64,000 nucleotides of DNA from Sphingobacteriales bacterium (GCA_046317915.1 JBKCVJ010000046.1:23352-87351), one strand, 5' to 3'; positions 1,048 through 61,233 are shown, numbered from the stretch's first letter. A program made the numbers and translations. Notes: generated from the sequence alone by a model not told the origin.

Positions 1048-2196
1048 ATGACGGCGCAGCGTTACAACTATATCATCGCTGGCATGGGTTGCGCTGGGCT
1101 TAGCCTGGCGGTTCAGTTGTCTGCCGCCGGACTCACTCGTGGTAAAAAAATCCTGCTGATTGATCGTGAACGCAAAGACGTCAATAACCGTACTTGGTGC
1201 TTCTGGGAAACCCACCCCGGTTTCTTTGAAAACATCGTATTCAAATCCTGGCGCGGTGCATGGTTCCACAGCTCGTCGCATTCCGCCTTGTTGGATCTGG
1301 ACCCTTACCATTACAAAATGATCCGCGGCCTGGATTTCAATACCTACTGCCTCAAAATGATCAAACAAGATCCAGCGTTTGAGGTTGTACATGATGAAGT
1401 GCTATCTATTCATTCCGAAGGGGAGATGGCTGAATGTACAACTACCCATGACCGCTATGAAGCGCCCTGGATCTTCAGTAGCATCATTTTTGATAAGCCG
1501 GCCATTCTTCCGGATGAGTTTTTTCTGCTGCAACATTTCAAAGGTTGGGTGATCAAGGTCCCGAAACCAGTCTTTGATCCCGCCAAGGCAACCCTTATGG
1601 ACTTTCGTCCATCTCAGCAACAGGGAACCACTTTTGTTTATGTCATGCCCTTCACCCCAACGGAAGCATTGGTAGAATATACTTTGTTTACGCCCTCATT
1701 ATTGGACAAAACATCTTACGATCGGGGACTAAGCAATTATATCCGTGAGCAGATTGGGATAGAGGAGTGGGAAGTTATGGAAGAGGAGTTCGGTGTGATC
1801 CCGATGACCAACCATCGATTCCCAAAGAGCCATAACCGTATCATCCATATCGGGACTGCAGGTGGCATGACCAAGGCTTCTTCCGGATATACTTTTCGAT
1901 TCATTCAAAAGGATACTGCTGAGATCATTCGCCAGTTGCAGAAAACAGGAAGGCCCGAAAGATCTGCTACCTGGGCAAAAAGGTTTCAGTGGTACGATAG
2001 CGTGTTGCTGAATATCCTGCACTACCAAACCCTGCAGGGCGATGCGATCTTTACGGACCTGTTTAAGCATAATGCGCCAGATAAGATCCTGAAGTTCCTG
2101 GACAATGAAACCACACTAGCCGAAGACATGAAAATCATGTGGTCACTCCCCCAATGGCCGTTTATGAAGGCAGGCATTGCGGAGGCGTTGAAATAG
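1048..2196 (+). CDS. crtY: Lycopene beta-cyclase (CrtY-type flavoprotein)
   Basis: N-terminal IAGMGCAGLS dinucleotide-binding motif, RTWCFW, EFGVIPM, IGTAGGMTKASSGYTF. Confidence 0.88.
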   Translation: MTAQRYNYIIAGMGCAGLSLAVQLSAAGLTRGKKILLIDRERKDVNNRTWCFWETHPGFFENIVFKSWRGAWFHSSSHSALLDLDPYHYKMIRGLDFNTYCLKMIKQDPAFEVVHDEVLSIHSEGEMAECTTTHDRYEAPWIFSSIIFDKPAILPDEFFLLQHFKGWVIKVPKPVFDPAKATLMDFRPSQQQGTTFVYVMPFTPTEALVEYTLFTPSLLDKTSYDRGLSNYIREQIGIEEWEVMEEEFGVIPMTNHRFPKSHNRIIHIGTAGGMTKASSGYTFRFIQKDTAEIIRQLQKTGRPERSATWAKRFQWYDSVLLNILHYQTLQGDAIFTDLFKHNAPDKILKFLDNETTLAEDMKIMWSLPQWPFMKAGIAEALK

Positions 2197-2254
2197 CTAA
2201 TGGCTAGTAACTATTGGCTATTGTTTGCGACCTCGCGACCTGCTACCTGCGACC
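2194..2254. repeat. Two adjacent heptamer arrays at a convergent gene junction: (TRGCTAN)x4 and (TGCGACC)x4
   Basis: tagctaa tggctag taactat tggctat (2194-2221); tgcgacc t cgcgacc tgctacc tgcgacc (2226-2254). Confidence 0.8.
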
Positions 2255-3098
2255 TAATTTGAATGATTCCGCCAATCAGCGCACAAACTCCCGAAATCAG
2301 TGTAAACAAAAAACTTGCTGAGAACGCTTTGGCGCTGTCTATCATCATCAGTCCGGATCCCGTTACCAGCACCCATTCGCGAATGCCAAGGCCGTTGATG
2401 CTGAGTGGCAGGGCAGACATCACGGATCCGCCGTAAAACAAGATGCCATAGGAGATCCATTGTTCTGCTACAATTGCAAAACCTTTCAGCAGACAAAAGA
2501 AACTCAGCAGTTGAAGACACTGTATCACCCAGGAGAATGCTGTTATTTTGAACAGTACTCCATTGAACGCTGGGAACAACTTGCGATGAAGTAAAAAGTA
2601 AACCAGCCACCCGATGATGAGCAGGATGATGATCCACCATACCTTCACAGGAACATATTCCTGCAACACATCCAGCCTTTGAATAAGCAATAACGCAGCG
2701 ATGGACAATAGTGTAGTCAGTCCATTCACGCGATCCAGCAGTGTGGCCGTAATAAGGGTTTTATAACTGGCCTCGGATCTTTTTTGCAGGTAGATCACTT
2801 TATACGCGTCCCCGCTCACGCCACCTGGCAGGAACAGTCCATAAAACATCGACTTGTAATACAATTGAAGGTTACGAACGTAGGGGATGTTTACACCAAC
2901 ACTCCTGAACAGTTGCAGCAGTCTGTAAGCGCTTAGAAATTGTGAAAGGTTATAAAGTATAAACGCAGGAATCAGCCACCACAGGCTGAATTGCTGAAGG
3001 GTTTCTTTAATGCTTTCCCAGCTGACTTTTTTGAAGACGAGGTAAAAGGCCAACGCAATGAGCCCAATCTTCAATAGCCATTTCAACAGGGACTTCAT
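2211..3098 (-). CDS. Lysylphosphatidylglycerol synthase TM-domain / UPF0104 flippase-like membrane protein
   Basis: Multi-TM protein with LFLPGGVSGDAYKV, DRVNG and PLSINGLGIRE motifs. Confidence 0.8.
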   Translation of the reverse strand: MKSLLKWLLKIGLIALAFYLVFKKVSWESIKETLQQFSLWWLIPAFILYNLSQFLSAYRLLQLFRSVGVNIPYVRNLQLYYKSMFYGLFLPGGVSGDAYKVIYLQKRSEASYKTLITATLLDRVNGLTTLLSIAALLLIQRLDVLQEYVPVKVWWIIILLIIGWLVYFLLHRKLFPAFNGVLFKITAFSWVIQCLQLLSFFCLLKGFAIVAEQWISYGILFYGGSVMSALPLSINGLGIREWVLVTGSGLMMIDSAKAFSASFLFTLISGVCALIGGIIQIRSQVAGREVANNSQ

Positions 3099-4039
3099 GC
3101 TTTTTGCTGATTAGAAAATATCTTTCTGACCTGGTAGGGTAGTTTGTTCTGCGACTCATAGTACGTGCGCATCATGATATCAGTCTGAATACCAAACAGC
3201 AACAACAACAAGCCCGCCAACAGCAGGATCACACCCAGAATAAGCAAGGGCCTGTCGCCGATGCGTTCTCCCTGTATCTTCAACACCAGAAGGTAGAGGT
3301 TGATGATGATGCCGGAGAAAAGAAATAGAAATCCGATGGGTCCAAAGAAGTGCATCGGCTTTTGAAAATATTTCAACCGGAAGATCATCAGGACCAGATC
3401 GCTGGCAACTTTGGACGTTCTGCCAATACCATATTTGGATACTCCGTGGATGCGTGCATGGTGTTTAACGGGCACCTCCGTCATGCGTGCACCCTGCAGG
3501 GCCGCCAATACAGGGATGAATCGATGTAATTCTCCATATAGTCCGAGATTCTTAGCAATCCTTGCATCAAAGACTTTAAGGGTGCAACCATAATCATGCA
3601 GCCTCACCTTGGTACTCTGCCGTATCAATGCATTGGCGATCTTGCTGGGAATCTTCCGAAGCAACATCCCATCCTGTCTTTTCTGGCGGACGCCGGCCAC
3701 AAGGTCCCATTCTTCATCCTGTAATTTTTTCAGCATCATCGGGATATCATCCGGATCATTCTGTAGGTCGCCGTCCATCGTAGCAATATACTCGCCCTCC
3801 GCGGCTTGAATGCCCGCGGCCATGGCTGCAGATTGCCCATAGTTTTTCATCAGGGTGACCAACTTTGTATCTGTGCCAAGGTGTTGTTTTACTTTTTCGA
3901 TGGTCTTGTCTTTGGATCCATCGTCTACCATTACCAACTCATATTCCATACCCTTCAGGGCCTCCCGAAGCCTTGCAAAAAGCGGTTCAATATTATCTTC
4001 TTCGTTATACAGGGCCACCACTACAGACAAACGACTCAT
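3095..4039 (-). CDS. GT2 polyprenol-phosphate glycosyltransferase (ArnC/DPM-synthase-like)
   Basis: VVALYNEEDN, VDDGSKD, NYGQSAAMAAG, MDGDLQNDP, LYGELHRFIP; two C-terminal TM helices. Confidence 0.9.
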   Translation of the reverse strand: MSRLSVVVALYNEEDNIEPLFARLREALKGMEYELVMVDDGSKDKTIEKVKQHLGTDTKLVTLMKNYGQSAAMAAGIQAAEGEYIATMDGDLQNDPDDIPMMLKKLQDEEWDLVAGVRQKRQDGMLLRKIPSKIANALIRQSTKVRLHDYGCTLKVFDARIAKNLGLYGELHRFIPVLAALQGARMTEVPVKHHARIHGVSKYGIGRTSKVASDLVLMIFRLKYFQKPMHFFGPIGFLFLFSGIIINLYLLVLKIQGERIGDRPLLILGVILLLAGLLLLLFGIQTDIMMRTYYESQNKLPYQVRKIFSNQQKA

Positions 4040-9789: not shown

Positions 9790-9796
9790 CGATGCA

Positions 9797-9836
9797 CATT
9801 GCCGCATTACCGCACTGCCACATTGCCAAATTGACT
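9797..9836. repeat. Octamer tandem array (MATTRYCN)x5
   Basis: cattgccg cattaccg cactgcca cattgcca aattgact. Confidence 0.85.
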
Positions 9837-10556: not shown

Positions 10557-10564
10557 CAAAGATA
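10557..10564 (-). promoter_or_regulatory. Bacteroidota -7 box (TATCTTTG) for the marC-family gene
   Basis: Exact consensus 4 nt upstream of the ATG at 10552. Confidence 0.65.
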
Positions 10565-10565
10565 A

Positions 10566-10629
10566 GGTGGAAGTTGGTAGGTGGAAGGTGGAGGTACTTT
10601 CTTCCACCTTCCAACTTCCAACTTCCGCC
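10566..10629. repeat. Inverted pair of (GGTGGAA)x4 heptamer arrays forming a ~28-bp hairpin
   Basis: ggtggaa gttggta ggtggaa ggtggag - gtactttc - ttccacc ttccaac ttccaac ttccgcc. Confidence 0.85.
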
Positions 10630-12586: not shown

Positions 12587-12697
12587 ATCAATAAATAGGG
12601 GACTTGGGAGCAGAGAAAGAAAACCAGGGTTCTTCCGCGGAAAAGAATAGGTTGACCAACTCCGGCTTTTCACCCGAAAGCCCAGGTTAATAAATCA

Positions 12698-12872
12698 CGA
12701 AGGCAGGTCTTCTGGCTTGTTTCTCTGCACCTTCCCGGCCCCAAGGAACCAGTGGTTTTTTTACAAAGGCGCTTGAATTCATAGCGCCTGAAACTTACAG
12801 CTACGGGGATAGCGCCGGACTTTCACCGGCTTCCCTTTTCATCCTCCGTTGTTGGCGGAGGAACCATTCGCA
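12698..12872 (-). promoter_or_regulatory. Cobalamin (AdoCbl) riboswitch
   Basis: Reverse strand has AAAAGGGAAGCCGGTGAAAGTCCGGCGCTATCCCCGTAGCTGTAA...CCACTG...GGGAAGG...AAGCCAGAAGACCTGCC, matching the B12-element core and B12 box. Confidence 0.93.
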
Positions 12873-12970
12873 GGGCAAAGTTGTGTGGAATGCATCAGAT
12901 CGCAAAATCCGATTCTATTCAACGTGAATAAAAAGTTGATACTAAAAATTCAATTATCTTAAGGGCGCTT

Positions 12971-14320: not shown

Positions 14321-15480
14321 TGGACATTTCCTATATCCTCAATGAACTGGGGGAGGATCGTGAAAATTATTTCAATGCCATCGCTCCGCCGATCATCCAG
14401 ACCAGCAACTTCGCCTTCGATACTGTTGACGAACTGCGCAAGGCATTTGAAGACGAGATGGGCGGCTATCTCTACAGCAGAGGACTGAACCCAACGGTGG
14501 AGATCCTGCGTTTAAAACTCGCGGCACTGGACGGCGCGGAAGATTGCCTGGTCTTTAACAATGGTGCTGCGGCTACCTATGCTGCCGTGATGGCCAATGT
14601 GAAATCAGGAGATCATATTGTATCTGTAGAGCATCCTTACAGCTGGACGAAACACCTCTTTGATAAGATACTGCCCAGGTTTGGCATCACTACTTCGTAT
14701 GTGGATGGCCGTTATATCGAAAATTTTGAAAGAGCCATCTTACCCAACACCACCCTGATCTATCTGGAGAGTCCTACTTCATGGTATTTTGAATTGCAGG
14801 ACTTGAAAGCAGTTGCAGATCTTGCAAGGTCAGAGGGCATTGTGACCTTGATCGACAATAGTTATTGTACGCCGCTTTATCAGCGGCCGATTGAATTGGG
14901 GATCGATATTGCCATGCAGACGGCCACCAAATATATTGGCGGGCACAGTGATACCCTCGGTGGTGTGTTATGCGGCTCGGCCGAGATGATGCGTAAAATC
15001 TTTCTGAGTGAATACCTATGCATTGGCAGCGGCATCCAGCCCTTCAACGCCTGGTTGTTATTGCGCGGGCTTCGCACCTTGCCTGCCAGGCTGGAAAGGA
15101 TCAACAGAAGTACGCAGAAGTTTTTTGCCTACCTGAAAGATCATCCTTTGGTGGAGGAACTGATCTATCCCTTTGACCCTTCCTTTTCCCAATACGCCCT
15201 TGCCAGGCAGCAAATGACCGAAGCACCAGGGTTGATCTCGTTCTATGTGAACATGGAAACCGCCGATCAAATTGAGACCTTCTGCAACAGCCTGAAAGTC
15301 TTCAAAATGGCTGTAAGCTGGGGCGGACATGAAAGCCTGATCATCCCAAAATTGTCTTCCATGCCCCGGGATTTATTTGACCCCACCGTGAAGGACCACC
15401 GGATGATCCGCATCTATGTGGGTCTGGAAGAGCCGGATTACCTTATTAAAGGCCTTCAGCAAGCCTTTAATAGCTATTAG
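14320..15480 (+). CDS. PLP-dependent trans-sulfuration enzyme (cystathionine gamma-synthase/beta-lyase/methionine gamma-lyase family)
   Basis: PIIQTSNF, YSRGLNPT, YLESPT, IDNSY, TATKYIGGHSD (PLP Lys), SWGGHESL. Confidence 0.9.
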   Translation: MDISYILNELGEDRENYFNAIAPPIIQTSNFAFDTVDELRKAFEDEMGGYLYSRGLNPTVEILRLKLAALDGAEDCLVFNNGAAATYAAVMANVKSGDHIVSVEHPYSWTKHLFDKILPRFGITTSYVDGRYIENFERAILPNTTLIYLESPTSWYFELQDLKAVADLARSEGIVTLIDNSYCTPLYQRPIELGIDIAMQTATKYIGGHSDTLGGVLCGSAEMMRKIFLSEYLCIGSGIQPFNAWLLLRGLRTLPARLERINRSTQKFFAYLKDHPLVEELIYPFDPSFSQYALARQQMTEAPGLISFYVNMETADQIETFCNSLKVFKMAVSWGGHESLIIPKLSSMPRDLFDPTVKDHRMIRIYVGLEEPDYLIKGLQQAFNSY

Positions 15481-15498
15481 CTACTAGCTAATAGCTAT
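15471..15498. repeat. (TAGCTAN)x4 heptamer array containing the stop codon of the upstream gene
   Basis: tagctat tagctac tagctaa tagctat. Confidence 0.85.
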
Positions 15499-15601
15499 TT
15501 AGGCGGCAAGAATCCGTTATCAATGATTTTGCCGTTGTCAATTTTGGTTGAATCTTTGCGGATATCTGGGTAACGGTGGTTGCACAGGATAAATGATTTA
15601 C

Positions 15602-18463: not shown

Positions 18464-18540
18464 TATTGGTTATTCGTTATTAGTTATTGGTTAATTTGAA
18501 GCCGTTTTAACCACCCATAACTATTAACGAATAACCAATA
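18464..18540. repeat. Inverted pair of (TATTVGT)n heptamer arrays, ~31-bp stem
   Basis: tattggttattcgttattagttattggttaa ... ttaaccacccataactattaacgaataaccaata. Confidence 0.8.
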
Positions 18541-18547
18541 ACTTTTT

Positions 18548-24309: not shown

Positions 24310-25074
24310 ATGGCTGAGGCAAACAAGTCAGTGAAAAAGATTCTGATTACCCAACCCCGTCCCGAGTCTGATAAGTCGCCCTATTTCGAGCTGGCTAAGC
24401 GGTATGCCGTGGAGATGGAATTCTTCCCTTTCATCCGGCTTGAGCCCATCCCCTGCAAAGAATTCAGGAAGCAGAAAATAGAGATCGCCGAGTATTCATC
24501 GGTGATTTTCACCAGCCGCAATGCTATAGACCATTTCTTCCGTATCTGCGAAGAAATGAAGCTGAACATTTCGCAGGACACTAAATATTTCTGCATCACC
24601 GAAGCGGTGGCGCTTTACCTGCAGAAGTTCATCCTATACAGAAAACGAAAGGTTTTTTATGGTGCCGATGGTACCAACAAGAGCCTGTTTGACGTGATGA
24701 ACAAGCACAAGGAAAACGAGAAGTTTCTCTATCCCTGTTCCGAAAACCAGCAGGACAATGAGATCGTGAACTGGCTGAAGAACAATAAATGTGAATTCCA
24801 GACGCCATTCATGTACCGTACCATCAGCAATGATGCCAGCAAGCTGGAAGCGCACAATTTTGACGTGATCTGTTTCTTTACGCCCAGTGGTGTAAGGAGC
24901 CTTTTTGATAATTTCCCCGCCTATACCCAGAACGGAACCTTCATCGGAGCCTTCGGCAGCAATACCTCCAAAGCCATACAGGAAGCGGGTTTACAGCTGC
25001 ACATCAAAGCCCCCGAACCGCAAGTGCCATCTATGATTGCGGCATTGGAGAAGTTCCTGGCAACGAAAAAGTAA
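24310..25074 (+). CDS. hemD: Uroporphyrinogen-III synthase-like protein (HemD family)
   Basis: KILITQP, VIFTSRNAIDHFF, YRTISND, FFTPSGVRS; function assigned from fold only. Confidence 0.75.
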   Translation: MAEANKSVKKILITQPRPESDKSPYFELAKRYAVEMEFFPFIRLEPIPCKEFRKQKIEIAEYSSVIFTSRNAIDHFFRICEEMKLNISQDTKYFCITEAVALYLQKFILYRKRKVFYGADGTNKSLFDVMNKHKENEKFLYPCSENQQDNEIVNWLKNNKCEFQTPFMYRTISNDASKLEAHNFDVICFFTPSGVRSLFDNFPAYTQNGTFIGAFGSNTSKAIQEAGLQLHIKAPEPQVPSMIAALEKFLATKK

Positions 25075-25171
25075 AAAATTAAAAAGTAAAAATTAAAAAG
25101 CTATTGCAAAGAACTATACCTGGAACAACCTGTTAAGGTTTTTTACTTTTTACTTTTGAATTTTTACTTTT
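25066..25171. repeat. Inverted pair of (AAAAAGT)n/(TTTTTAC)n heptamer arrays with ~38-nt spacer
   Basis: aaaaagt aaaaaatt aaaaagt aaaaatt aaaaagc ... tttttac tttttac ttttgaa tttttac tttt; spans from the hemD stop to the next ATG. Confidence 0.75.
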
Positions 25172-25172
25172 C

Positions 25173-27224
25173 ATGAATCGCCTCGCTTCAGAGACCAGTC
25201 CTTATTTGCTGCAGCATGCCCATAATCCGGTGGATTGGTATCCGTGGGGTGAGGAAGCCTTGTTGCTGGCGAAGCAACAGGATAAACCGATTCTCGTTAG
25301 CATCGGCTATTCGGCCTGCCATTGGTGTCACGTGATGGAGCGGGAGAGTTTTGAGGACCCGGCTACAGCGGCATTCATGAATGAAGCCTTTGTGAACGTG
25401 AAGATCGACAGGGAGGAGCGGCCGGATCTTGACCATATATATATGGATGCGGTGCAGGCCATTAGTGGCAGCGGTGGCTGGCCCCTGAACGTATTTCTCA
25501 CTCCTGAGGCAAAACCGTTTTATGGTAGCACTTACTTTCCACCGGTAAGGGCTCACAATCGGCCTTCCTGGATGGAAGTGCTTTCCCGAATATCCAGGGC
25601 GTTTCGGGAAGAACGGGGTAAGATCGAGGAACAAGCGCAGCAGCTGACGGATCATCTCAGCCAGCAAAACCAATTTGGGACCAATGCCCTGCAGGTGAAT
25701 ATCCCGCCTGAGGAGCGTTTTACTTATACCCAGCTCCACCAGGCTTTTGAAGCCGCCATGGGTCAGGCCGATACAGTTTGGGGCGGGTTTGGCAAAGCGC
25801 CCAAGTTTCCACAAACATTTACCCTTAATTATTTACTTCGATATCATTTTCTGACCGGCAGGCAGGACGCGCTGGATCAGGCTTTGCTGAGTCTCGATAA
25901 GATGATCCAGGGCGGCATCTATGACCATCTGGGAGGAGGATTTGCTCGTTATTCCACGGATACGGAGTGGCTGGCGCCGCATTTTGAAAAGATGTTGTAC
26001 GACAATGCCCTGCTTGTGCTCAGCCTTTGTGAAGCATTTCAGGTGACGGCCAACCCGGTCTATGAAAAGATCATCAGGCAAACACTGGGATTTGTGACCG
26101 ATGAACTGATGGATCAAGAAGGCGGCTTTTTCAGTGCGCTGGATGCGGACTCAGAAGGAGAAGAGGGGAAATTTTATACCTGGAGCCGGGCGGAACTGAT
26201 GGAAGTACTAGGTGAGGAAGATGGCGCATGGTTTGCAAGGATCTATGATGTGACGGAAAGGGGGAATTGGGAGCATGTTAATATTCTGAGAGTGGGGGAT
26301 GTGGAGAGGTGGAAGGTGGAAGGTGGAAGTTTGAAGTGGGAGAATTGCCGGCAGGCGTTGTTAGACAGGAGGGCTAAGAGGGTTAGGCCGGGTTTAGACG
26401 ATAAGGTACTGACCAGTTGGAACGCGCTCATGAATCTCGCTTTTAGCACGGCAGCTTCGGTTCTAGGCGATGCCCAGATCGGGCAGGTAGCTGAGCGAAA
26501 TATGAAGTTTTTGTGGAACTGCAGGGAGAAGGCAGGGGAGTGGAGACATAGTTATAAGAAAGGAGAGTACAAGGTTGTTGCTTTTTTGGACGACCAGGCC
26601 TACCTGATTTGGGCCATGACTGGATTGTACGAAATGGGCGGGGATGAGATCTGGCTCAACCGCGCGAAAGCCATGATGGATGAAGTAAGTGCAGCTTATT
26701 CCGATGAAGAGAGCCGTTTCTACTACTATACCCAAAAACGACAGGAAGATGTGATCGTGCGGAAGAAAGAGATTTATGATGGGGCAACCCCGTCCGGAAA
26801 TGCCGTAATGGCGCTTAACGGGTGGAAATTGGGAGTCCTGACGGGTAATGAATCATGGAAAAACCGTTCGAGGGATATGGTTGATGGCGTATTGCAGGTA
26901 GCCACCCGATATCCTACCTCATTTGGGGTATGGAGCAGCCTGTTGGCTGAGTTGGCAGCGGGTACCTTTGAGATCGGTATTCTGGGTCCGGGAGCGGAAG
27001 AAAAGCGTAAACAACTGTTGCTGAAATATTTGCCGTTTAAAGTAGTGCAGTCGGCCGAAAATAACCGTGAAGATCTTCCGTTATTAATGGGGAAAAAAAC
27101 CGGGCCTGAGGTGTTGGTATACCTATGCAGGGACTATGTGTGTAAGAAGCCCGTTGAAAGCATTGAAGAGTTGTTCCAACTGATTGAATCGGAATTGCCG
27201 GGTAAATCGGTTGCGGCACAATAA
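25173..27224 (+). CDS. Thioredoxin-domain (DUF255) / six-hairpin glycosidase-like protein, YyaL/SPATA20 family
   Basis: [60 protein letters not shown]. Confidence 0.92.
26300..26341. repeat. (AGGTGGA)-type heptamer array x6 inside the YyaL-family CDS
   Basis: tgtggag aggtgga aggtgga aggtgga agtttga agtggga; same unit as 10566-10629. Confidence 0.7.
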
Positions 27225-32248: not shown

Positions 32249-32317
32249 ACTAAATAGCATAAAAAAAGCCCCCGCTTCCAGCGGGGGCTTTTTTTATGCT
32301 ATTTAGTCTAGTATGAC
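32239..32317. terminator. Bidirectional intrinsic terminator embedded in a perfect 37-bp inverted repeat
   Basis: Core A7-GCCCCCGC-TTCCA-GCGGGGGC-T7 (32261-32295); perfect complementarity continues outward to 32239/32317. Confidence 0.92.
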
Positions 32318-32354
32318 AATTTGCCAATTAGTCAATGCGGTAATGCGGCAATTG
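32315..32354. repeat. Octamer array x5 (reverse orientation) upstream of the four-helix-bundle gene
   Basis: gacaattt gccaatta gtcaatgc ggtaatgc ggcaattg. Confidence 0.8.
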
Positions 32355-32428
32355 TTCCGCGTATTTTCTGCCTTTTTTCTGTTGCAAATACTGAGCTGAC
32401 GGGTTATACGCCAGGCTAGATTGCAGGG

Positions 32429-32785
32429 ATGGAGAATAATATCATTTTGAATAAGTCAGTTTCATTTTCAGGTGAAGTGATTCGTTTTGCGAGGGAGATA
32501 CCTGTTGATTGTAGAACCATAGCTAGTCAACTAGTAAGATCAGGGACTTCAATTGGTGCGAGTATAGCAGAAGCCCAGGGTGCAGAGAGCACAATAGACT
32601 TTGTGCACAAGTTGAAGATCGCTGATAAGGAAGCCAGAGAAACTGAGTATTGGCTGAACTTACTTAGCAATACAGAAAGAGGAGTGGATCAAACTAAACT
32701 AAGAGAGGATCTAAGAGAAATACAAAGGTTATTAAATGCCATTATTGGTACTTGCAAACGAAAACTAAAAAAGAAAGCAGGTTGA
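32429..32785 (+). CDS. Four helix bundle protein (TIGR02436 / 23S rRNA intervening-sequence protein family)
   Basis: QLVRSGTSIGASIAEAQGAES..DFVHKLKIADKEARETEYWL. Confidence 0.92.
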   Translation: MENNIILNKSVSFSGEVIRFAREIPVDCRTIASQLVRSGTSIGASIAEAQGAESTIDFVHKLKIADKEARETEYWLNLLSNTERGVDQTKLREDLREIQRLLNAIIGTCKRKLKKKAG

Positions 32786-32791
32786 TGTATT

Positions 32792-32827
32792 CATTGCCAC
32801 ATTGTCTAATTTTCTAATTGGCCAATT
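32792..32827. repeat. Octamer array (forward orientation) downstream of the four-helix-bundle gene
   Basis: cattgcca cattgtct aattttct aattggcc aatt. Confidence 0.8.
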
Positions 32828-32867
32828 AAAAAAAATGGGGCTTGGATAGAAATCCTGCCCCGTTTTT
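32828..32867. terminator. Bidirectional intrinsic terminator
   Basis: A8-TGGGGC...GGAT-AGAA-ATCC...GCCCCG-T5. Confidence 0.7.
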
Positions 32868-42573: not shown

Positions 42574-42951
42574 ATGCCTCTGTTTGTAAGAACTATATCA
42601 CTCATTACCGTATTCCTGGTTGTCAGTTCTTTTGACTTCACTGTGGATGAGATTTTCGGTGCCATCCGCAGGGGTGATGCCGTTAAAATATCCCGTCATT
42701 TTGATAACCTTGTGGAGATCACTGTGGCGGAGAAAAGCTGCTCTTACAGCAAAACCCAGGCTGAACTGGTGTTGCGGGATTTCTTCACTACACATTCCGT
42801 CCGCAATTTTATCATGCACCACAAAACCAACAGCAATAATGCTGATTATTATGTTGGAAAACTCAGTACCTCAAAAGGAGAGTTCCGCACTACCGTACTG
42901 GTAAAAACCCGAGGCGAGAAACGGGTGGTGCAAGAACTTAGGTTTGAATAG
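42574..42951 (+). CDS. DUF4783-family protein
   Basis: Signal-like N-terminus; YSKTQAELVLRDFF motif; gpmI/nadC context. Confidence 0.75.
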   Translation: MPLFVRTISLITVFLVVSSFDFTVDEIFGAIRRGDAVKISRHFDNLVEITVAEKSCSYSKTQAELVLRDFFTTHSVRNFIMHHKTNSNNADYYVGKLSTSKGEFRTTVLVKTRGEKRVVQELRFE

Positions 42952-42976
42952 CTATAAGCTAGTAGCTATTAGCTAT
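42949..42976. repeat. (TAGCTAT)x4 heptamer array beginning at the stop codon
   Basis: tagctat aagctag tagctat tagctat. Confidence 0.8.
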
Positions 42977-42984
42977 TTTTGGTC

Positions 42985-43842
42985 ATGCTTTCATTTGACC
43001 AGGCACTTGAACAACTTGTTGCTGCAGCCATCATAGAAGATGTTGGCGACGGCGATCACTCCACGCTTAGTACCATCGCTCCTGATGCAAGGGGCAAAGC
43101 CATTTTAAAAATAAAGGATGAAGGTATTCTCGCAGGCGTAGCCGTAGCGGAGAAAATTTTTCATATGCTGGAGCCTGGCTCCGTGCTGCACATCTATCGA
43201 AAGGATGGTGATGTGATGGTTAAGGGCGATATCGCTTTTGAGGTGTCCGCATCTATACATACCATCTTGAAAGGGGAACGCCTTGTCCTGAATATTATGC
43301 AGCGTATGAGTGGCATTGCCACGCTGACGCGGCAGTATACGGACAAGTTGAAAGGATATCACACCCGCGTATTGGACACACGAAAAACCACACCCAATTT
43401 CCGATTGCTGGAAAAAGAAGCTGTACGTATCGGGGGAGGTATCAACCATCGTTTTGGACTGTATAATATGATCATGCTTAAAGACAACCATATTGATTAT
43501 TGCGGCGGTTTGACGAAAGCGATCAACCTTGCGCATGAGTATGTACAAGAAGTGAAGCCCGGATTGAAAATAGAAGTAGAGACCAGATCTTTAGACGATG
43601 TGGCTACAGTTGTGCAGATGGGGAAAGGCAAGGTGTTTCGGATCATGCTGGATAATTTTACACCGGAGAAAATAAGTGAAGCCTTACAGCTGATCAATGG
43701 ACAGTTTGAAACCGAAGCCAGTGGCGGCATCAATCTCGAAAATATTGAAGCCTATGCTGCAACCGGAGTGGACTATGTTTCTGTTGGGGCACTGATTCAC
43801 CAGGCAAGAAGCCTGGACCTGAGCCTGAAAGCTCAGGTCTAA
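42985..43842 (+). CDS. nadC: Nicotinate-nucleotide diphosphorylase (carboxylating), quinolinate phosphoribosyltransferase
   Basis: ERLVLNIMQRMSGIAT, DTRKTTP, HRFGL, IMLDN, EASGG. Confidence 0.96.
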   Translation: MLSFDQALEQLVAAAIIEDVGDGDHSTLSTIAPDARGKAILKIKDEGILAGVAVAEKIFHMLEPGSVLHIYRKDGDVMVKGDIAFEVSASIHTILKGERLVLNIMQRMSGIATLTRQYTDKLKGYHTRVLDTRKTTPNFRLLEKEAVRIGGGINHRFGLYNMIMLKDNHIDYCGGLTKAINLAHEYVQEVKPGLKIEVETRSLDDVATVVQMGKGKVFRIMLDNFTPEKISEALQLINGQFETEASGGINLENIEAYAATGVDYVSVGALIHQARSLDLSLKAQV

Positions 43843-43876
43843 TGCGTCAATTTGATAATGCGGCAATGCGGTAATT
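43838..43876. repeat. Octamer array x5 (reverse orientation) filling the nadC-SUI1 gap
   Basis: tctaatgc gtcaattt gataatgc ggcaatgc ggtaatt, followed directly by ATG. Confidence 0.8.
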
Positions 43877-44212
43877 ATGAGCAAGAAGAATAAAGCAGAC
43901 AAAAGCGGATTCGTGTTTAGCACAGATCCTACTTTTCAGTTTGAACATGAAGCACAGGAAGAGCAGGAGACCCTGCCTCCGGAGAAACAGAAACTCCGGA
44001 TCATGCTGGATAAAAAGCAACGTGCCGGTAAGGCAGTGACACTCGTCACGGGGTTTGTTGGAAAGCCTGATGATCTGGAAGAACTCGGTAAAAAAGCCAA
44101 GCAATTTTGCGGTACCGGTGGGTCTGTGAAAGATGGTGAGATCATTATCCAAGGAGATCAGCGGGAGAAGGTGCGGCAGTTTCTGATCAAGATGAAATAT
44201 ACACTGCTCTAG
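43877..44212 (+). CDS. Translation initiation factor SUI1/YciH family
   Basis: RAGKAVTLVTGF, CGTGGSVKDGEIIIQGD. Confidence 0.92.
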   Translation: MSKKNKADKSGFVFSTDPTFQFEHEAQEEQETLPPEKQKLRIMLDKKQRAGKAVTLVTGFVGKPDDLEELGKKAKQFCGTGGSVKDGEIIIQGDQREKVRQFLIKMKYTLL

Positions 44213-44329
44213 CAATTGACAATTGGCAATTGACAATTAACAATTGGCACTAGTCTTTGGATATCTAAAGATTAGTCTCTAATTACCAGTGCCAATTGCT
44301 AATTATTAATTGCCAATTGTCAATTGCTA
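44210..44329. repeat. REP/MITE-like element: 45-bp inverted arms of six heptamers (TRRCAAT x5, TGGCACT) plus RGT; 30-nt spacer
   Basis: Arms 44210-44254 and 44285-44329, 41/45 complementary; lies between convergent SUI1 and icd. Confidence 0.88.
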
Positions 44330-44332
44330 ACC

Positions 44333-46390: not shown

Positions 46391-47482
46391 ATGGCCTACA
46401 AAGTAAGTTTTAACAACAGCAACCGTGTATTTTTCAACACTTTAAAGACGGCTGTTGACGAGTATTTCGAGAAAAATAATCTCCGGAAAACAGGCAACTA
46501 TAAGCTTTACGTAAAAACCACCACGTTGATCGTTTCAACGCTGGCGATTTACCTAAGTGTATTGTTTCTTCCCATGCCCGGGTGGGTGGCCATCTTGCTG
46601 AGTGCCGGTTTCGGCCTGTGCATGGCTTTCATTGGTTTCAATGTTATGCATGACGCCAACCACGGCAGTTTTTCCTCACGGAAATGGGTCAACGAAGTTT
46701 TTGGGTTGACGCTCAATTTCATTGGCGGTAATGCTTTTTTGTGGAAGCTGAAGCATAACATCGTTCACCACACCTATACCAATATTGACGGGGTGGATGA
46801 TGACATCAACAATATGCCGTTTATGCGCGAAGCGCCTACACAACCCTGGAAGCCCATGCACCGTTACCAGGGGTACTACATGTTCATGTTATACGGATTC
46901 ACTTCGCTGTTCATGTGGATCTCAGACTTTATCAAATATTTTTCGAAGAAAGTATACACCACGGAATTGAAGCCGATGGATGTGAAGGAGCATATGATCT
47001 TCTGGATCACCAAGGCCGCTTATGTGGTATTGTATGTGGTGATTCCGATCCTGGTTCTCGGTTGGAAGCCCTGGCTGATCGGATTTGCTGTGATGCATTT
47101 TGTACTCGGTCTCACCATCGCCATTGTGTTCCAGTTGGCACACGTAGTGGAGCATGCGGAGTTTTCTGTTGCGGGCGTGGAGCCTGTCAAAATTGAGAAC
47201 GAGTGGGCCATCCACCAGATCAAGACAACCGCCAATTTCGCGGCTGGGAATAAGCTCGTTACCTGGTGCCTTGGTGGATTGAATTTCCAGATTGAACACC
47301 ATCTTTTCCCGAGGGTCAGCCATATTCACTATCCGGCTATCAGCAAAATTGTGAAAGATACCTGCGAGCAATTTAAGCTCAGATATAACTACTTTCCAAC
47401 CATGGGAGAAGCTGTGTATTCCCACTTTAAGATCATGGATCAACTTGGAAGAAATAACCAAGAACTAGCAATTAACAATTAG
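46391..47482 (+). CDS. Membrane acyl-CoA/fatty acid desaturase
   Basis: His boxes MHDANHGS, HNIVHHTYTN, QIEHHLFP. Confidence 0.92.
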   Translation: MAYKVSFNNSNRVFFNTLKTAVDEYFEKNNLRKTGNYKLYVKTTTLIVSTLAIYLSVLFLPMPGWVAILLSAGFGLCMAFIGFNVMHDANHGSFSSRKWVNEVFGLTLNFIGGNAFLWKLKHNIVHHTYTNIDGVDDDINNMPFMREAPTQPWKPMHRYQGYYMFMLYGFTSLFMWISDFIKYFSKKVYTTELKPMDVKEHMIFWITKAAYVVLYVVIPILVLGWKPWLIGFAVMHFVLGLTIAIVFQLAHVVEHAEFSVAGVEPVKIENEWAIHQIKTTANFAAGNKLVTWCLGGLNFQIEHHLFPRVSHIHYPAISKIVKDTCEQFKLRYNYFPTMGEAVYSHFKIMDQLGRNNQELAINN

Positions 47483-47597
47483 CAATTAACAATTGGCAAT
47501 TGGCACTGGTTTTTGGAAGGTAGATTTTGGTGAGCGTCACTAACTTCCAACAACCAGTGCTAATTGCTAACTGTTAATTGCTAATTGTCAATTGTTA
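47466..47597. repeat. Second REP/MITE-like element with 45-bp heptamer arms; 42-nt spacer
   Basis: Arms 47466-47510 and 47553-47597 with the same (TRRCAAT)5-TRGCACT-GGT layout; lies between convergent desaturase and gldB. Confidence 0.88.
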
Positions 47598-50418: not shown

Positions 50419-50455
50419 GAACAATTACAATTGGCAATTGACAATTAGCAATTAG
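50419..50455. repeat. Solo (TRRCAAT)n heptamer array
   Basis: gaacaat tacaat tggcaat tgacaat tagcaat tag; same unit as the 45-bp arms, with no partner arm. Confidence 0.75.
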
Positions 50456-54264: not shown

Positions 54265-54265
54265 G

Positions 54266-54305
54266 CATTGCCGCATTACCGCATTGCCAAATTGTCTAAT
54301 TTCCA
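54266..54305. repeat. Octamer array x5 filling the batA-rsgA gap
   Basis: cattgccg cattaccg cattgcca aattgtct aatttcca. Confidence 0.85.
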
Positions 54306-58845: not shown

Positions 58846-61215
58846 ATGAAAGGTTTGTTTTTTCTGGGTATAACAGTGATGCTTGCGCTTTGCAGCAAAG
58901 CGCAGGATCCTTCTGTTTGGCAACATCGGTTCTGGCCAGCTAAATGGGTGACGCATCCGGATGCAGGATCCAACGCTTTCGGCGTATATCATTTCAGGAA
59001 GGATCTGAATCTGGAAGCAAAGCCATTGGCATTCCTCATTCATCTTTCTGCGGATAACCTTTACCTTTTGCAGGTGAATGGGCAGCGCGTGGCTATGGGT
59101 CCGGCTAGAAGTGACCCCGCCAACTGGAACTATGAGACGGTTGATCTCGCTCCCTTCCTTCAGCTTGGCAAAAATATCATTACAGCAACGGTTTGGAATT
59201 TCGCTGATTTCCGTGCTTACGCGCAAACGAGCTATGAAACCGGATTCATTGTACAGGGTAATGGTGCGAAGGAAGCAGTGGTCAACACACCGGGCGATTG
59301 GAAAGTGGTTGTGAATGAGGCGTATCAGCCTTTGCCGATTGACAGGGCGAGCCTGCAAACCTACGTGGCAGTAGCATCAGGAGAGAAAGTGGACGGCGCA
59401 AGGTACGCGTGGGGATATGATGCTGCAGATGTATCTGGTCTTCCATGGAAGCCAGTCAGAACGCTTTGGTATCCTGCCAAGCCAAGGTCATATGGTACCG
59501 ATGGAAACTGGCAACTGGTACCAAGATCCATCCCGATGATGGAAGACCAGCTACAGGAATTTTCCATAGAACGATCCGGCTATTTGCTGGCTGCCAAAGG
59601 TAAGGAAACCGTGAAGGGGAGCTTCCCATGGACTTTTGCGGCCAACACCAAATACAGTCTTTTACTTGATCAGGGTACATTGACCAATGCCTATGTCCAA
59701 CTCCTGACTTCAGGCGGCGCCGGGGCTAAGGTCACGTTTACCTATGCTGAAGCCATGATCAATAACAAGCGGGAAAAAGGGAACAGAAACGAGATCACTG
59801 GAAAGCACCTCATCGGAATCAGCGACCAGTATACTTCTGATGGCGGCGCAAATCGGTTGTATAGCCCACTGCATTATCGCACCTTCCGATATGTAAGAGT
59901 GGATATCGAAACCGGCAGTGAATCGCTGGTCATCAATGAACTCAACAGCAGGTTCACCGGATATCCTTTTGAAGAAAAAGGAAAATTCATCACTGAGGAC
60001 AAAGGCTTGCAGCGCATTTGGGAAACGGGTTGGAGAACCGCACGTCTCTGCGCGATGGACACTTATATGGACTGTCCTTACTACGAACAGTTGCAATATG
60101 TGGGCGATACCCGTATACAGGCAATGATCTCTTTATATGTGGCGGGAGACGACAGGCTCATGAAGAAAGCCATTAGTGACATCGCCCATTCATTTATTGC
60201 AGATGGATTAACGCAGAGCAGATATCCTTCTCGTGATCTGCAGGTGATCCCTACTTTCTCGCTTTGGTGGGTCTGCATGATTCATGATTTATACATGCAT
60301 CGCAAAGACGATGCATTCATCCGGGAACAGCTGAACGGCGTTGAAAATGTGCTCCGGTGGTACGAAGAGAAAATGGCATCCAATGGAATACTGGGATCGC
60401 TCAGCTGGTGGCAGTTTGTGGATTGGAGCTGGCCCTGGGTTGACAGCATCCGTGTAGGAGGAGTTCCACCAGGCGTAAGCAAAGGCGGGTCAGCCATTGT
60501 AAGTTTACAGTATGCGTATACGTTAGTAAGGGCCGCTGAACTGATGACGACTTATGGAAGGGCGGACATGGCTAAAAAATACAAGGACAGGGCCGCAAGG
60601 ATCTGCACGGATGTTTACCGCTTATGCTGGGATGAAACCAAGGGAATGTTTGCAGATACACCGGAGAAAAAGGAATTCAGCCAACATGTGAACATTCTTG
60701 CGATCCTTACAGATGCTATCCCCGTAACCAGGCAACAAGCGCTTTTGAAAAAGATCATGACGGATACCGCTATCACACAGGCAACCTACTATTTCCGGTT
60801 TTATATGTTTGAATCGATGAAAAAGACGGGGCTTGGGAACGAATACCTTGCTGAACTAAAGCCATGGTATGATATGCTAGACATCGGCCTAACTACTTTT
60901 GCCGAGAACCCGGAACCCACAAGAAGTGATTGTCATGCATGGAGCGCTTCACCCTTGTATGAAATGCTGTCTCTTGTTGCCGGTGTGATGCCGGCATCAC
61001 CGGGATTTAATACCGTCTACATTAAACCACATCCAGGCACATTGAAAAGCTTTGATGCAGTGGTACCTCACCCCGGCGGTGAAATCAAAGTGACCCTCAG
61101 GAATAACCAATGGGAACTGTCATTACCCAAGGGCGTTACAGGAATCTTTGAATGGCAGGGAAAAAAGTATCCGCTGGCAGGTGATAAATGGCAGTTAGTA
61201 GCTAATAGCTATTAG
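58846..61215 (+). CDS. Alpha-L-rhamnosidase-like glycoside hydrolase (GH78)
   Basis: Signal peptide; DTYMDCPYYEQLQYVGD, ENPEPTRSDCHAWS (alpha/alpha)6 motifs. Confidence 0.85.
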   Translation: MKGLFFLGITVMLALCSKAQDPSVWQHRFWPAKWVTHPDAGSNAFGVYHFRKDLNLEAKPLAFLIHLSADNLYLLQVNGQRVAMGPARSDPANWNYETVDLAPFLQLGKNIITATVWNFADFRAYAQTSYETGFIVQGNGAKEAVVNTPGDWKVVVNEAYQPLPIDRASLQTYVAVASGEKVDGARYAWGYDAADVSGLPWKPVRTLWYPAKPRSYGTDGNWQLVPRSIPMMEDQLQEFSIERSGYLLAAKGKETVKGSFPWTFAANTKYSLLLDQGTLTNAYVQLLTSGGAGAKVTFTYAEAMINNKREKGNRNEITGKHLIGISDQYTSDGGANRLYSPLHYRTFRYVRVDIETGSESLVINELNSRFTGYPFEEKGKFITEDKGLQRIWETGWRTARLCAMDTYMDCPYYEQLQYVGDTRIQAMISLYVAGDDRLMKKAISDIAHSFIADGLTQSRYPSRDLQVIPTFSLWWVCMIHDLYMHRKDDAFIREQLNGVENVLRWYEEKMASNGILGSLSWWQFVDWSWPWVDSIRVGGVPPGVSKGGSAIVSLQYAYTLVRAAELMTTYGRADMAKKYKDRAARICTDVYRLCWDETKGMFADTPEKKEFSQHVNILAILTDAIPVTRQQALLKKIMTDTAITQATYYFRFYMFESMKKTGLGNEYLAELKPWYDMLDIGLTTFAENPEPTRSDCHAWSASPLYEMLSLVAGVMPASPGFNTVYIKPHPGTLKSFDAVVPHPGGEIKVTLRNNQWELSLPKGVTGIFEWQGKKYPLAGDKWQLVANSY

Positions 61216-61233
61216 CAACTAGCCAATAGCTTT
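61199..61233. repeat. (TAGCTAN)x5 heptamer array at a convergent junction
   Basis: tagctaa tagctat tagcaac tagccaa tagcttt. Confidence 0.8.

Follow-up and report, generated by a model that had tools for sequence, protein, structure and literature searches.

Period-7 and period-8 tandem arrays at gene ends in freshwater Chitinophagaceae and their relation to hairpin cassettes with four-helix-bundle genes

A 64-kb stretch of DNA from a Sphingobacteriales bacterium, called the window here when its whole length of 64,000 nucleotides is meant, is dotted with short tandem arrays of 7- or 8-nt units. The question raised by this locus is what produces such arrays with so constant a geometry, and what they might do at the ends of genes. 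The host lineage is freshwater Chitinophagaceae. The first-pass annotation proposed that one mechanism generates or selects the arrays, for example slippage, templated synthesis or a protein that reads period, and that they may form an undescribed REP-like system. Our best explanation, to which we give about an even chance, is that the arrays are STRR-like repeats of a known kind that form, in this lineage, the arms of hairpin cassettes resembling IVS elements, most of them lacking an ORF, and that these cassettes act on transcripts.

Geometry, position and persistence of the arrays

Tandem Repeats Finder, used for array detection in the window, returned period-7 arrays starting at 2226, 10564, 10601, 15471, 18464, 18513, 25074 (25066), 25140, 26301, 42949, 44213, 44290, 47466, 47561, 50422 and 61199, and period-8 arrays starting at 9795, 32333, 32801, 43857 (43840) and 54265; octamer arrays number five or six in all. 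The chance level was set by 200 dinucleotide-preserving shuffles of the window with a cut-off of at least 3.5 copies. Sixteen period-7 arrays passed this cut-off where 0.02 were expected (the shuffle mean; shuffle maximum 2), so that the arrays are indeed commoner than in shuffled sequence. Period 8 contributed one array of at least 3.5 copies and four with 2-2.6 copies, and no other period was enriched in the window over the shuffles. Copy number in the window peaks at 4-4.5 and reaches 5.7, the typical array being 4-5 units (28-35 nt) long, and the copy-number distribution has a plateau or mode at 3.5-5 followed by a sharp drop and is not geometric. Across the family, the dominant periods are again 7 (101 arrays) and 8 (33 arrays). 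The period and copy-number counts bear out the constant geometry that had been proposed.

The same annotation described the unit sequences as unrelated. This is right only in part: several distinct heptamer families do exist, but a few families recur at many loci, the same units being found at several places in the window, and all of the window octamers belong to a single family, NNATTRNN (CCGCATTG/CAATGCGG). Two of the heptamer families consist of a 6-bp palindrome with one free base (TAGCTA-N and CAATTG-N), and units within an array agree at 73-95% matches. In assembly graphs the arrays appear as repeat nodes of high depth (5-10x higher at the arrays) that are joined to many differing flanks. 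Units of the window are found again in related genomes and in contigs of 54-62% GC, TGCGACC for instance at 500-523 and 3001-3033 of relative L156, and each relative has its own set of recurring units. Head-to-tail units of 7 or 8 nt in at least three copies, far above chance, and a dispersed, mainly intergenic, lineage-specific repertoire define STRRs or long SSRs, and the arrays have both properties.

Nearly all arrays in the window (21 of 22) fall between genes or reach no further into a gene than its final codons, most often at 0-9 nt from a stop or the next start, and those ending at 25171, 18542, 42977 and 50455 stop 1-9 nt before a start codon. Arrays occupy 6 of 8 convergent gaps, 9 of 43 tandem gaps and 0 of 8 divergent gaps (convergent versus divergent, p=0.007), although the divergent gaps are twice as long as the convergent ones. 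In a wider sample, comprising the window and 80 Chitinophagaceae loci, 140 of 158 arrays lie in non-coding DNA, which makes up 10.4% of the sequence. The bias to gene ends that had been proposed is real, with two corrections: one array is intragenic, and the units TGCGACC and GGTGGAA contain no stop triplet and are simply read through by ORFs. The TGCGACC x4.1 array (2226..2255) supplies the final codons of the minus-strand ORF 2211-3098, and GGTGGAA x4 (26301..26329, plus strand), the only fully intragenic array of the window, lies inside the coding sequence of a DUF255/thioredoxin-domain protein (25173-27224).

The arrays are also stable. Contigs from four independent metagenome runs span those at 42949, 43840 and 50422 without gaps, and no indels were seen within them, indicating no copy-number variation among strains. 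Orthologous arrays occur in independent MAGs and contigs (L001, L002, L003, L156 and L191) and persist at 88.7% and 77% nucleotide identity; array identity is 85.7% and 76.4%, compared with 72.8% and 51.7% at third codon positions, a comparison inflated by low complexity. In L001-L003 the copy number is nearly constant. The 42949 array has four units in L001 and L002 and three degenerate units in L003; the 44210 element has orthologues in L001 and L003 and is reduced to 29 nt in L002; the 50422 array has two units in L003 and is replaced by unrelated sequence in L001. Different arrays, or just a terminator, stand at the corresponding convergent sites in other lineages. The hypervariable copy number of classical SSRs at contingency loci was absent from the four runs and from L001-L003. 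Some features would suit an assembly or sequencing artefact, in that Logan contigs break and mis-join at arrays (opposite-strand joints 44258/47511 and 47499/47569, for example) and L007 has an N run inside an array region. Nevertheless, the contigs of the four runs and five independent assemblies place the same arrays at the same sites, and an artefactual origin can practically be dismissed.

Array hairpins and four-helix-bundle gene cassettes

Inverted pairs, which had been noticed in the window, extend to the wider sample: in the window and the 80 Chitinophagaceae loci, self-complementarity or an inverted partner is seen for 84 of the 158 arrays, and 74 have no partner. Between the convergent lycopene cyclase (+) and LPG-synthase-TM (-) genes, a degenerate, self-complementary TAGCTAN-like array (2194..2225) folds as a 12-bp hairpin (region 2190-2262: -19 kcal/mol, z -3.4), and the adjacent TGCGACC array forms only small local stems. 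The self-complementary TAGCTAN x4.1 array at 15471..15499 contains the stop codon of a Cys/Met PLP enzyme gene and forms a 14-bp hairpin (-18.6 kcal/mol, z -3.9). A further TAGCTAN x4.1 array (42949..42977) opens with the TAG stop of a DUF4783 gene and takes up the space before nadC, and TAGCTAN x4.7 (61199..61231), a weak hairpin (z -1.3) in a convergent gap, contains the stop of a rhamnosidase-like gene. Three inverted pairs fold as well. AAGGTGG x4.1 and CTTCCAA x3.7, separated by an 8-nt loop (10564..10626), lie between two minus-strand genes and fold on the minus strand at -42.7 kcal/mol (z -7.3). TATTNGT x4.3 and ACNAATA x4.3 (18464..18542), whose arms are in register at the variable base, fill the 92-nt gap between an HlyD-like gene and gpsA (-36.7 kcal/mol, z -8.9), and the pair of AAAAAGT/AAAAATT and TTTTTAC (25066..25171) extends from the stop of hemD to within 1 nt of the following ATG (-24.1 kcal/mol, z -3.4).

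Two paralogous elements, the only two with the inner motif TTGGCACTRGT, form long hairpins. The element at 44210..44330, with the structure [CAATTRN]5-GGCACTAGT-loop-ACCAGTGCC-[NYAATTG]5, lies between the convergent SUI1 and isocitrate dehydrogenase genes (-62.8 kcal/mol, z -12.2), and the one at 47466..47597 lies between the convergent desaturase and gldB genes (-77.7 kcal/mol, z -14.5) and has in its loop a nested GGAAGTT-type hairpin (47506-47557) that is missing from L003. In five orthologues of the latter, 34-41 of 44 arm positions are paired; compensatory arm changes count for little, since the positions that vary are R/Y, which pair by chance three times in four. Other arrays do not fold: the lone CAATTRN x5 array that separates nadE from the MoxR gene (50422..50455, z +0.8) and the solo octamer arrays, namely CACATTGC x4.9 of CATT type between an acyltransferase gene and tRNA-Arg (9795..9833, z +0.5), an array of TAATGCGG type in AATG orientation that opens with the TAA stop of nadC and leaves 1 nt free ahead of the SUI1 gene (43840..43875), and GCATTGCC GCATTACC GCATTGCC AAATTGTC TAATTTCC immediately after a batA-like stop (54265..54300). 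The array hairpins of the window differ from intrinsic (Rho-independent) terminators in lacking a T-run or U-tract directly after a GC-rich stem, whereas true terminators are present at 32267-32296 and 32826-32866. Metatranscriptome contigs are sparse; one of them runs from the DUF4783 gene through the 42949 array.

One array stem of the window encloses a gene. The product of 32429..32785 (plus strand) is a four-helix-bundle member of the 23S rRNA-intervening-sequence, Avd-like protein family (IVP; Pfam PF05635, E=1.7e-20; PDB 2RLD, 5 chains, E=9e-20). On the plus strand, its 5' arm (32317..32352) consists of the AATG-type octamers CAATTAGT CAATGCGG TAATGCGG CAAT, and its 3' arm (32797..32825) of the CATT-type octamers ATTGCCAC ATTGTCTA ATTTTCTA ATTGGCCA. 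In the minimum-free-energy fold of 32300-32835, 32318-32354 pairs with 32792-32827 through 30 pairs, the arm duplex contributing -28.9 kcal/mol, which places the gene in the loop. The outer borders are canonical bidirectional terminators, the left one after gldN (32267..32296; stem of -34.2 kcal/mol and a T-run) and the right one at 32826..32866. Orthologues occupy the same gldN-uvrC site, which is empty in L051, and no target-site duplication is evident when filled sites are compared with empty or collapsed ones. The loops of the other window hairpins are 8-52 nt long and hold no PF05635 ORF.

The same design, a 5' array, the ORF and an inverted 3' array, surrounds PF05635 genes in the window, in six other Bacteroidota loci, in a 55%-GC soil contig and in Xanthomonas, where XCC0516 lies between accB and accC enclosed by GGGAATC x4 and its inverted copy. 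The arms pair with each other in all nine cassettes folded, over 22-108 bp. Arrays are present on both sides of the gene at 8 of 11 IVP loci, compared with 18 of 990 other genes (p=1e-11), and they occupy 12 of 14 IVP-adjacent gaps versus 2 of 17 other gaps at the same loci (p=5e-5), so that the suspected co-occurrence with four-helix-bundle genes holds at the level of the locus. The IVP loci L228 and L008 have no clear flanking arrays, and in the array-dense genomes L134 and L063 inverted arrays stand on both sides of ordinary genes too. Arms with an AATG-core octamer follow the gene through different sites and orders, in loci of Chitinophagales, Bacteroidales and Marinilabiliales. In L142 a PF05635 gene lies between TRGCAMT arms containing GCAATTGGCACT, and these arms belong to the arm family of the ORF-less hairpins in the window. 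The ratio of ORF-less hairpins to IVP cassettes is about 20 to 1.

Weighing the explanations

If the arrays are the arms of IVS-like cassettes, the ORF-less hairpins would be miniature relatives of the four-helix-bundle cassettes, transcribed together with the upstream gene. The stem would then act on RNA, either by offering RNase III a place to cut or by forming a 3'-end barrier, and could separate or stabilise neighbouring messages; solo arrays that do not fold would represent half-elements or sites where a protein binds. We infer both the processing and the spread of the cassettes.

DNA polymerase is said to slip preferentially on 7-nt units, an idea of Mrazek et al. in 2007, who reportedly found heptanucleotides to be the most abundant class of long SSRs, and the arrays could be neutral by-products of slippage that survive only between genes, where they are harmless. 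It fits this explanation that heptanucleotides are the commonest long SSRs in many prokaryotes (PMC4679880, PMC4692102), that arrays are kept out of coding DNA, and that small copy differences exist between species (4 versus 3 units at 42949, 5 versus 2 at 50422). However, strains do not vary in copy number, units within an array differ yet the arms match in register, a small set of units turns up at many loci and in different phyla, and the copy-number distribution is not geometric; nor would slippage explain the avoidance of the longer divergent gaps or why one gene family in particular is associated with the arrays. Slippage alone fits poorly with the stable copy number and the arms that stay in register, and we consider the neutral explanation unlikely. 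About as unlikely is the explanation that the hairpins are terminators or stabilisers of the usual 3'-end kind, with a REP-like function and an origin independent of the four-helix-bundle genes, and that these genes are separate selfish ORFs that land preferentially in their loops. The nested hairpin at 47506-47557 indicates that loops accept insertions, and the great excess of ORF-less hairpins and the replacement of arrays by others or by plain terminators at the same convergent sites in other lineages are what would be expected. The type of arm unit nevertheless travels with the gene in three orders, XCC0516 is flanked by the signature heptamer of its own Xanthomonas genome, and the arrays of IVP-bearing loci cluster at the gene.

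In REP/BIME-RAYT systems each repeat is one imperfect palindrome of 20-40 nt that has a conserved head, and the repeats are paired with a RAYT (Y1 HUH) gene. Mobilisation of the arrays by a RAYT transposase encoded elsewhere in the genome would account for the shared niche, since REPs likewise occupy gene 3' ends and convergent gaps, form hairpins and come in several families per genome. Yet the units here are tandem 7-8-mers rather than single palindromes, and among about 58 window proteins there was no match to Y1_Tnp or to any other transposase, HUH or reverse-transcriptase family; we rejected membership in this class, a co-occurrence with RAYT/HUH genes was not seen in the window, and mobilisation by a distant RAYT is very improbable. 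The arrays could instead be single-stranded RNA or DNA sites for a periodic binder of cold-shock, S1 or RRM type that tunes downstream translation, a role proposed for TAACTGA repeats (PMC4679880). In several cases 1-9 nt separate an array from the following start codon, as in Beggiatoa (PMC4679880), and some arrays are unstructured; but six occupy convergent gaps, where no start follows downstream, long stems tie up about half of the arrays, and the unit sequences differ widely, which makes this role improbable.

A bolder extension of the cassette explanation, rather unlikely in our estimation, is that the four-helix-bundle (S23p/Avd-like) homopentamer is the missing partner of the arrays, binding one 7-8-nt unit per subunit and guiding the copying, maintenance or processing of the cassette. 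One unit per subunit, if true, would explain the constant period and the length of 4-5 units whatever the sequence, and Bacteroidota, Xanthomonas, cyanobacteria and others would share a transposase-free, protein-templated repeat system.

Relation to known repeat systems

Cyanobacterial STRRs, as reportedly described by Mazel et al. in 1990, are genome-specific, dispersed and highly repeated tandem heptanucleotides; the window arrays are alike in being genome-specific dispersed heptamers and differ in phylum, being from Chitinophagaceae. The slippage explanation for long SSRs fits the stability and register of the window arrays poorly. The suggestion that the system may be undescribed was wrong, because repeats of this kind are known as STRRs, as GGGAATC in Xanthomonas and as TAACTGA in Beggiatoa and Bacteroidetes, and heptameric repeats had already been reported (PMC4692102, PMC4679880).

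The heptamers of Xanthomonas (GGGAATC) and Nostoc (GGGGAYT) are lineage-specific, about 90% intergenic, nearer the upstream stop and more frequent in convergent than divergent gaps; they are transcribed, form many inverted pairs (70-75 per genome) and lie in 83% of cases at the same loci in sister species (PMC4692102). Genomic locations in Xanthomonas are unusually conserved, although repeat length varied (Rehm et al. 2015, PMC4692102). Those repeats share with the window arrays the period of 7, the few units, the intergenic position on the upstream-stop side and the inverted pairs. They differ in having one G-rich unit per genome, read as G-quadruplex forming, whereas the window has six or more AT-rich or mixed families and an octamer family, none of them G4-prone; Rehm et al. 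do not mention a link to the four-helix-bundle gene XCC0516. TAACTGA repeats are found in Beggiatoaceae, cyanobacteria and five Bacteroidetes, the same unit thus occurring in distant phyla (MacGregor 2015, PMC4679880). They too are heptamer repeats between genes; an array has 2-6 units, carries a stop in each of the three frames and often ends 1 nt before a start (PMC4679880). Almost all are direct (one inverted case) and in forward orientation before start codons, in contrast to the inverted pairs and 3'-end positions that dominate in the window.

REP/BIMEs and MITEs resemble the arrays as short dispersed hairpins at gene 3' ends that come in several families per genome and outnumber any coding partner, but the arms of the array hairpins are internally periodic. 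MITEs combine terminal inverted repeats with a target-site duplication and are related to an autonomous transposon that has a transposase; of these features inverted arms are present, and a four-helix bundle, which is not an enzyme, is the sole coding partner. The 23S rRNA IVS of Leptospira and Coxiella has a terminal stem of about 28 bp that is cut by RNase III and an S23p/PF05635 ORF in the loop, and is regarded as a selfish or mobile relic (PMC4990558). The window cassette (32429-32785) is built in the same way, with terminal inverted repeats forming a long stem and a PF05635 ORF in the loop. Unlike an rRNA IVS, which is inserted in a 23S or 16S rRNA helix, the copies in the window, which contains no rRNA, lie between protein-coding genes, their arms are tandem 7-9-mers and most are ORF-less. 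What is new relative to the published descriptions consulted is the stability of the arrays, the long stems in about half of them (to -78 kcal/mol) and the PF05635 genes inside inverted pairs; array-flanked four-helix-bundle genes tie together two old puzzles.

Geometry and gene setting of the arrays

Tandem Repeats Finder returned 45 rows for the window, with period 7 the commonest; at 3.5 copies or more there were 16 arrays with period 7, plus a single array each with period 8 and period 4. The excess over chance presumed by the first-pass annotation is real: 200 dinucleotide-preserving shuffles of the window gave, at the same copy-number threshold, a mean of 0.02 period-7 arrays and a maximum of two. 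The constant geometry it described was also borne out in the window. In an offset-match scan, the copy number of period-7 arrays had its mode at 4-4.5, shorter arrays were rare and none exceeded about 5.7, and period 8 was the only other period to behave in this way. Across 80 related loci, periods 7 (101 arrays) and 8 (33 arrays) prevail, and copy number is maximal at 4-5 and falls steeply at 6. Far longer heptamer arrays in Longitalea arenae and Niastella soli (TTGCCTA x35.9, AACCGGC x18.4 and TTCTTAC x13.3; L080 5667-5923 and 3767-3896, L056 8100-8192) indicate that the 4-5-unit limit is not family-wide.

Direct reading of the sequence sorts the window heptamers into about six families: TAGCTA-N (2194, 15471, 42949, 61199), CAATTR-N/TRGCAAT (44210, 44290, 47466, 47558, 50422), TATTNGT (18464, 18513), AAAAAGT (25066, 25140), GGTGGAA (10564, 10601, 26301) and TGCGACC (2226). 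The octamers (9795, 32317-32352, 32797-32825, 43840, 54265) form a single family with an ATTR core every 8 bases. The earlier description of the units as unrelated therefore stands for the six or so heptamer families, but units recur at several loci and the octamers are all of one kind. A period-15 repeat (ACCACCACGTCCAAG) at 31295-31353, near the 5' end of gldN, is a five-codon coding repeat unrelated to the 7- and 8-nt arrays.

The window host is a Chitinophagaceae bacterium, with a best protein match of 98% to a Chitinophagaceae MAG; of two relatives, L001 shows 88.7% DNA identity across 15 kb and L003 shows 77%. In turn, 83-98% of the window's words are present in freshwater metagenome runs. 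A cyanobacterial STRR identity, our initial guess, was dropped because the nearest genomes are freshwater Chitinophagaceae MAGs. The window encodes housekeeping functions of an ordinary kind (gldLMN, gldB, uvrC, icd, nadC/nadE, the bat operon and TonB receptors). None of its genes is a transposase, HUH or RT gene, and the suggested co-occurrence with RAYT/HUH genes is therefore not seen in the window. A cobalamin riboswitch (Rfam RF00174, 104.6 bits) at 12685-12884 (-) lies upstream of a TonB-dependent receptor gene (10631-12673) in a BtuB-like arrangement.

The proposed bias to gene ends is pronounced. All but one of the 22 window arrays are intergenic or reach only into the last codons of a gene, and they typically lie 0-9 nt from the stop or next start codon, so that the array fills the gap. 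Arrays occupy 6/8 convergent, 9/43 co-directional and 0/8 divergent gaps (convergent versus divergent, p=0.007). When the window and the 80 related loci are pooled, 140 of 158 arrays lie in non-coding DNA, which makes up 10.4% of the total (p=7e-116). The sole fully intragenic array, GGTGGAA x4 at 26301-26329 (26290-26345 in its wider extent, with degenerate units on both sides), is translated in frame within the coding sequence of a DUF255/thioredoxin-domain protein (25173-27224).

Hairpin structure, stability and dispersal

The inverted pairs noted in the first-pass annotation were confirmed at five window sites, all with long predicted stems: 44210-44330 (-62.8 kcal/mol, z -12.2), 47466-47597 (-77.7 kcal/mol, z -14.5), 18464-18542 (-36.7 kcal/mol, z -8.9), 10564-10626 (-42.7 kcal/mol, z -7.3) and 25066-25171 (-24.1 kcal/mol, z -3.4). 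TAGCTA-N arrays are self-folding, and the folding analysis found no fold for the single CAATTRN array at 50422 or for the solo octamers. Of the 158 pooled arrays, 84 are built from self-complementary units or have a partner in inverted orientation. The array hairpins carry no U-tracts; true terminators are found in the window at 32267-32296 and 32826-32866, and a consensus terminator scan together with a hairpin-plus-T-run scan did not show arrays and canonical terminators to be clearly complementary. The two large hairpins, at 44210-44330 and 47466-47597, are paralogues: both contain the inner motif TTGGCACTRGT, which occurs at no other place in the window. Nested in the loop of 47466-47597 is a further hairpin, built from a different unit family and missing from L003.

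At orthologous sites in three relatives (L001, L002 and L003) the arrays are kept; they differ by point changes, and their copy number is almost constant. One window hairpin has shrunk to 29 nt in L002, and one array is missing from L001 with two units left in L003. Array identity is above that of third codon positions (85.7% vs 72.8% in L001, 76.4% vs 51.7% in L003), although it is inflated by low complexity. The 47466 stem is preserved in five orthologues (34-41 of 44 positions paired), and double changes occur in 6 of 44 columns, a covariation of little weight given that the sites that vary are R/Y. The corresponding gaps of more distant relatives hold arrays of other units or periods, namely AATGTGATG 9-mers (L005/L007), AAGTGGG (L014), GTTCATG (L019) or ACTTTTC (L006), and those of still others a plain terminator or nothing. 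Within a sister clade of about 75% protein identity, the 8-/9-nt units AATGTGATG and CAATTAGC replace the heptamers at the same intergenic sites (L007 7452-7872, L008 11447-11561, L005 7813-7852). One sister-clade array region extends over about 460 nt, and a run of N inside it marks an assembly gap within the array.

That the arrays might be assembly artefacts is contradicted by contigs from four independent runs, which cross them with zero gaps and so also indicate a constant copy number among strains. The same data show a 5-10-fold increase in depth at the arrays, contig breaks and many differing flanks, which identifies the arrays as multi-copy dispersed families. Logan contigs of all four DNA runs contain joints on opposite strands (44258/47511 and 47499/47569) that link the two CAATTRN hairpin elements or both arms of one element. 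These joints could be read as real rearrangement; graph tangling at shared repeats of at least 31 nt is the most likely explanation.

The arrays are unevenly distributed: in 20 kb many relatives lack them altogether, and every genome that does carry arrays repeats a small set of units of its own. A metagenome scan with AATTRNCAATTGGCACT as query gave hits largely by chance, with true arrays at about 14 loci that include two orthologues of 47466-47597 and several contigs of 54-62% GC. The AT-rich AGCAATT/GCAATTG inverted arrays of these GC-rich contigs (L098, L115, L152, L159, L164, L189, L192, L199 and L142), compared with 47% GC in the window, show that one unit is used by very different genomes, as has been reported for TAACTGA.

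Arrays around the PF05635 gene

The only window gene within an inverted array pair, at 32429-32785 (+), encodes a PF05635 four-helix-bundle protein, annotated as '23S rRNA intervening sequence protein'. Among PDB entries it is related to 2RLD and, at a greater distance, to 2GSC, which is XCC0516 of Xanthomonas campestris. Both depositions contain five chains, and the description of 2GSC speaks of five four-helix bundles. The family is similar to Avd, an accessory protein of DGRs. GGGAATC and CAATGCGG are the repeat units named for XCC0516 and the window protein. We retrieved independent PF05635 loci for comparison and scored arrays of period 7-9 on each flank. Arrays were present on both sides at 8/11 PF05635 loci versus 18/990 other genes (p=1e-11), and in 12/14 PF05635-adjacent gaps versus 2/17 other gaps of the same loci (p=5e-5). 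The suggested co-occurrence with four-helix-bundle genes is thus upheld at most loci but not at L228 and L008, where flanking arrays are not clear.

Arrays on both sides were found in an ABC-transporter operon (L221), at hgmA-hppD with arms of about 110 nt (L225), in Labilibacter (L227), in a Microbacter polysaccharide operon (L235), and at L237, L004 and L142. The last, a 55%-GC contig among the true-array loci of the metagenome scan, has TRGCAMT arms including GCAATTGGCACT, the arm family of the ORF-less hairpins of the window. At L221 2836-2997, upstream of the four-helix-bundle gene, a 53-aa ORF of the source assembly consists wholly of a AATGTGGG octamer array, and arrays can therefore create spurious small ORFs. 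In X. campestris and X. citri the PF05635 gene lies between accB and accC, splitting this normally contiguous pair (XCC0516 locus; L229 2424-2872, L233 2424-2874). Its upstream array reads GGGAATC, GGGAGTG, GAGAATC, GGGAATC, and the reverse complement stands directly before the accC ATG, in register at 6/7 positions per unit; the predicted stem consists of 6-bp helices, interrupted by a mismatch at almost every 7th position. In MFE folds of whole cassettes (5' array, PF05635 ORF and inverted 3' array), the 5' array paired with the 3' array over 22-108 bp in 9/9, leaving the ORF in the loop.

One relative, L051, represents an empty site, with one terminator between gldN and uvrC. An HMM scan of 2.1 Mb of collected DNA found no further PF05635 members, and viral contigs scanned for the family yielded nothing. 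Ordinary genes also lie within inverted long-loop array pairs in the array-dense genomes L134 and L063, so such bracketing is not confined to the four-helix-bundle gene. A strand rule, with AATG units on the upstream side of the gene and CATT units on the downstream side, was not relied on, as it was followed at only about 6/11 loci (44:21 and 32:42 overall).

Interpretation and relation to known repeats

Records of tandem heptanucleotide repeats in bacteria go back to 1990. In many genomes no other long simple repeat is as common, and we know of no accepted function or origin for them; the equally widespread PF05635 family is, to our knowledge, likewise unexplained. Their physical link, seen in Bacteroidota and Xanthomonas, would turn two puzzles into one testable question, and on the Xanthomonas side a crystal structure of the protein is already available. 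The arrays are dispersed, stable and hairpin-forming, and in two phyla they bracket PF05635 genes. The reading with the best support makes them arms of IVS-like hairpin cassettes that mostly lack an ORF and work on transcripts at gene ends. The stems may undergo RNase III processing or act as insulation, and the ORF-less hairpins would be miniature derivatives of the ORF-bearing cassette. A speculative idea is that the pentameric PF05635 protein recognises the period of 7-8 nt and fixes array length at 4-5 units. We found no enzyme or junction that accounts for array spread. In practice, the arrays break short-read assemblies, lengthen or cut ORF calls at gene ends, and could pass for phase-variable loci, which they apparently are not.

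The first-pass annotation went too far in suggesting an undescribed system, because the class is already known (PMC4692102, PMC4679880, STRR) and the arrays are a new lineage within it. The earliest example, as cited in PMC4692102, is the Calothrix STRR heptamers. Xanthomonas genomes each carry about 185 GGGAATC arrays, 89-93% of them intergenic, which lie nearer the upstream ORF, favor convergent (16%) over divergent (7-8%) gaps, form 70-75 inverted pairs and are unusually stable in position (Rehm et al., PMC4692102). TAACTGA arrays of 2-6 units occur in Beggiatoaceae, 15 cyanobacteria and 5 Bacteroidetes and frequently end 1 nt ahead of a start codon (MacGregor, PMC4679880). According to the summary of Mrazek in the latter paper, heptanucleotides outnumber all other long SSRs, and polymerase slippage was suggested as the cause. 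Neither heptamer paper mentions the PF05635 gene family, and a limited literature search found no publication tying it to heptamer repeats, although one may exist. The cassettes share the architecture of the 23S rRNA intervening sequence of Coxiella and Leptospira, in which an RNase III-cut terminal stem of 28 bp similarly encloses a PF05635/S23p ORF in its loop (PMC4990558).
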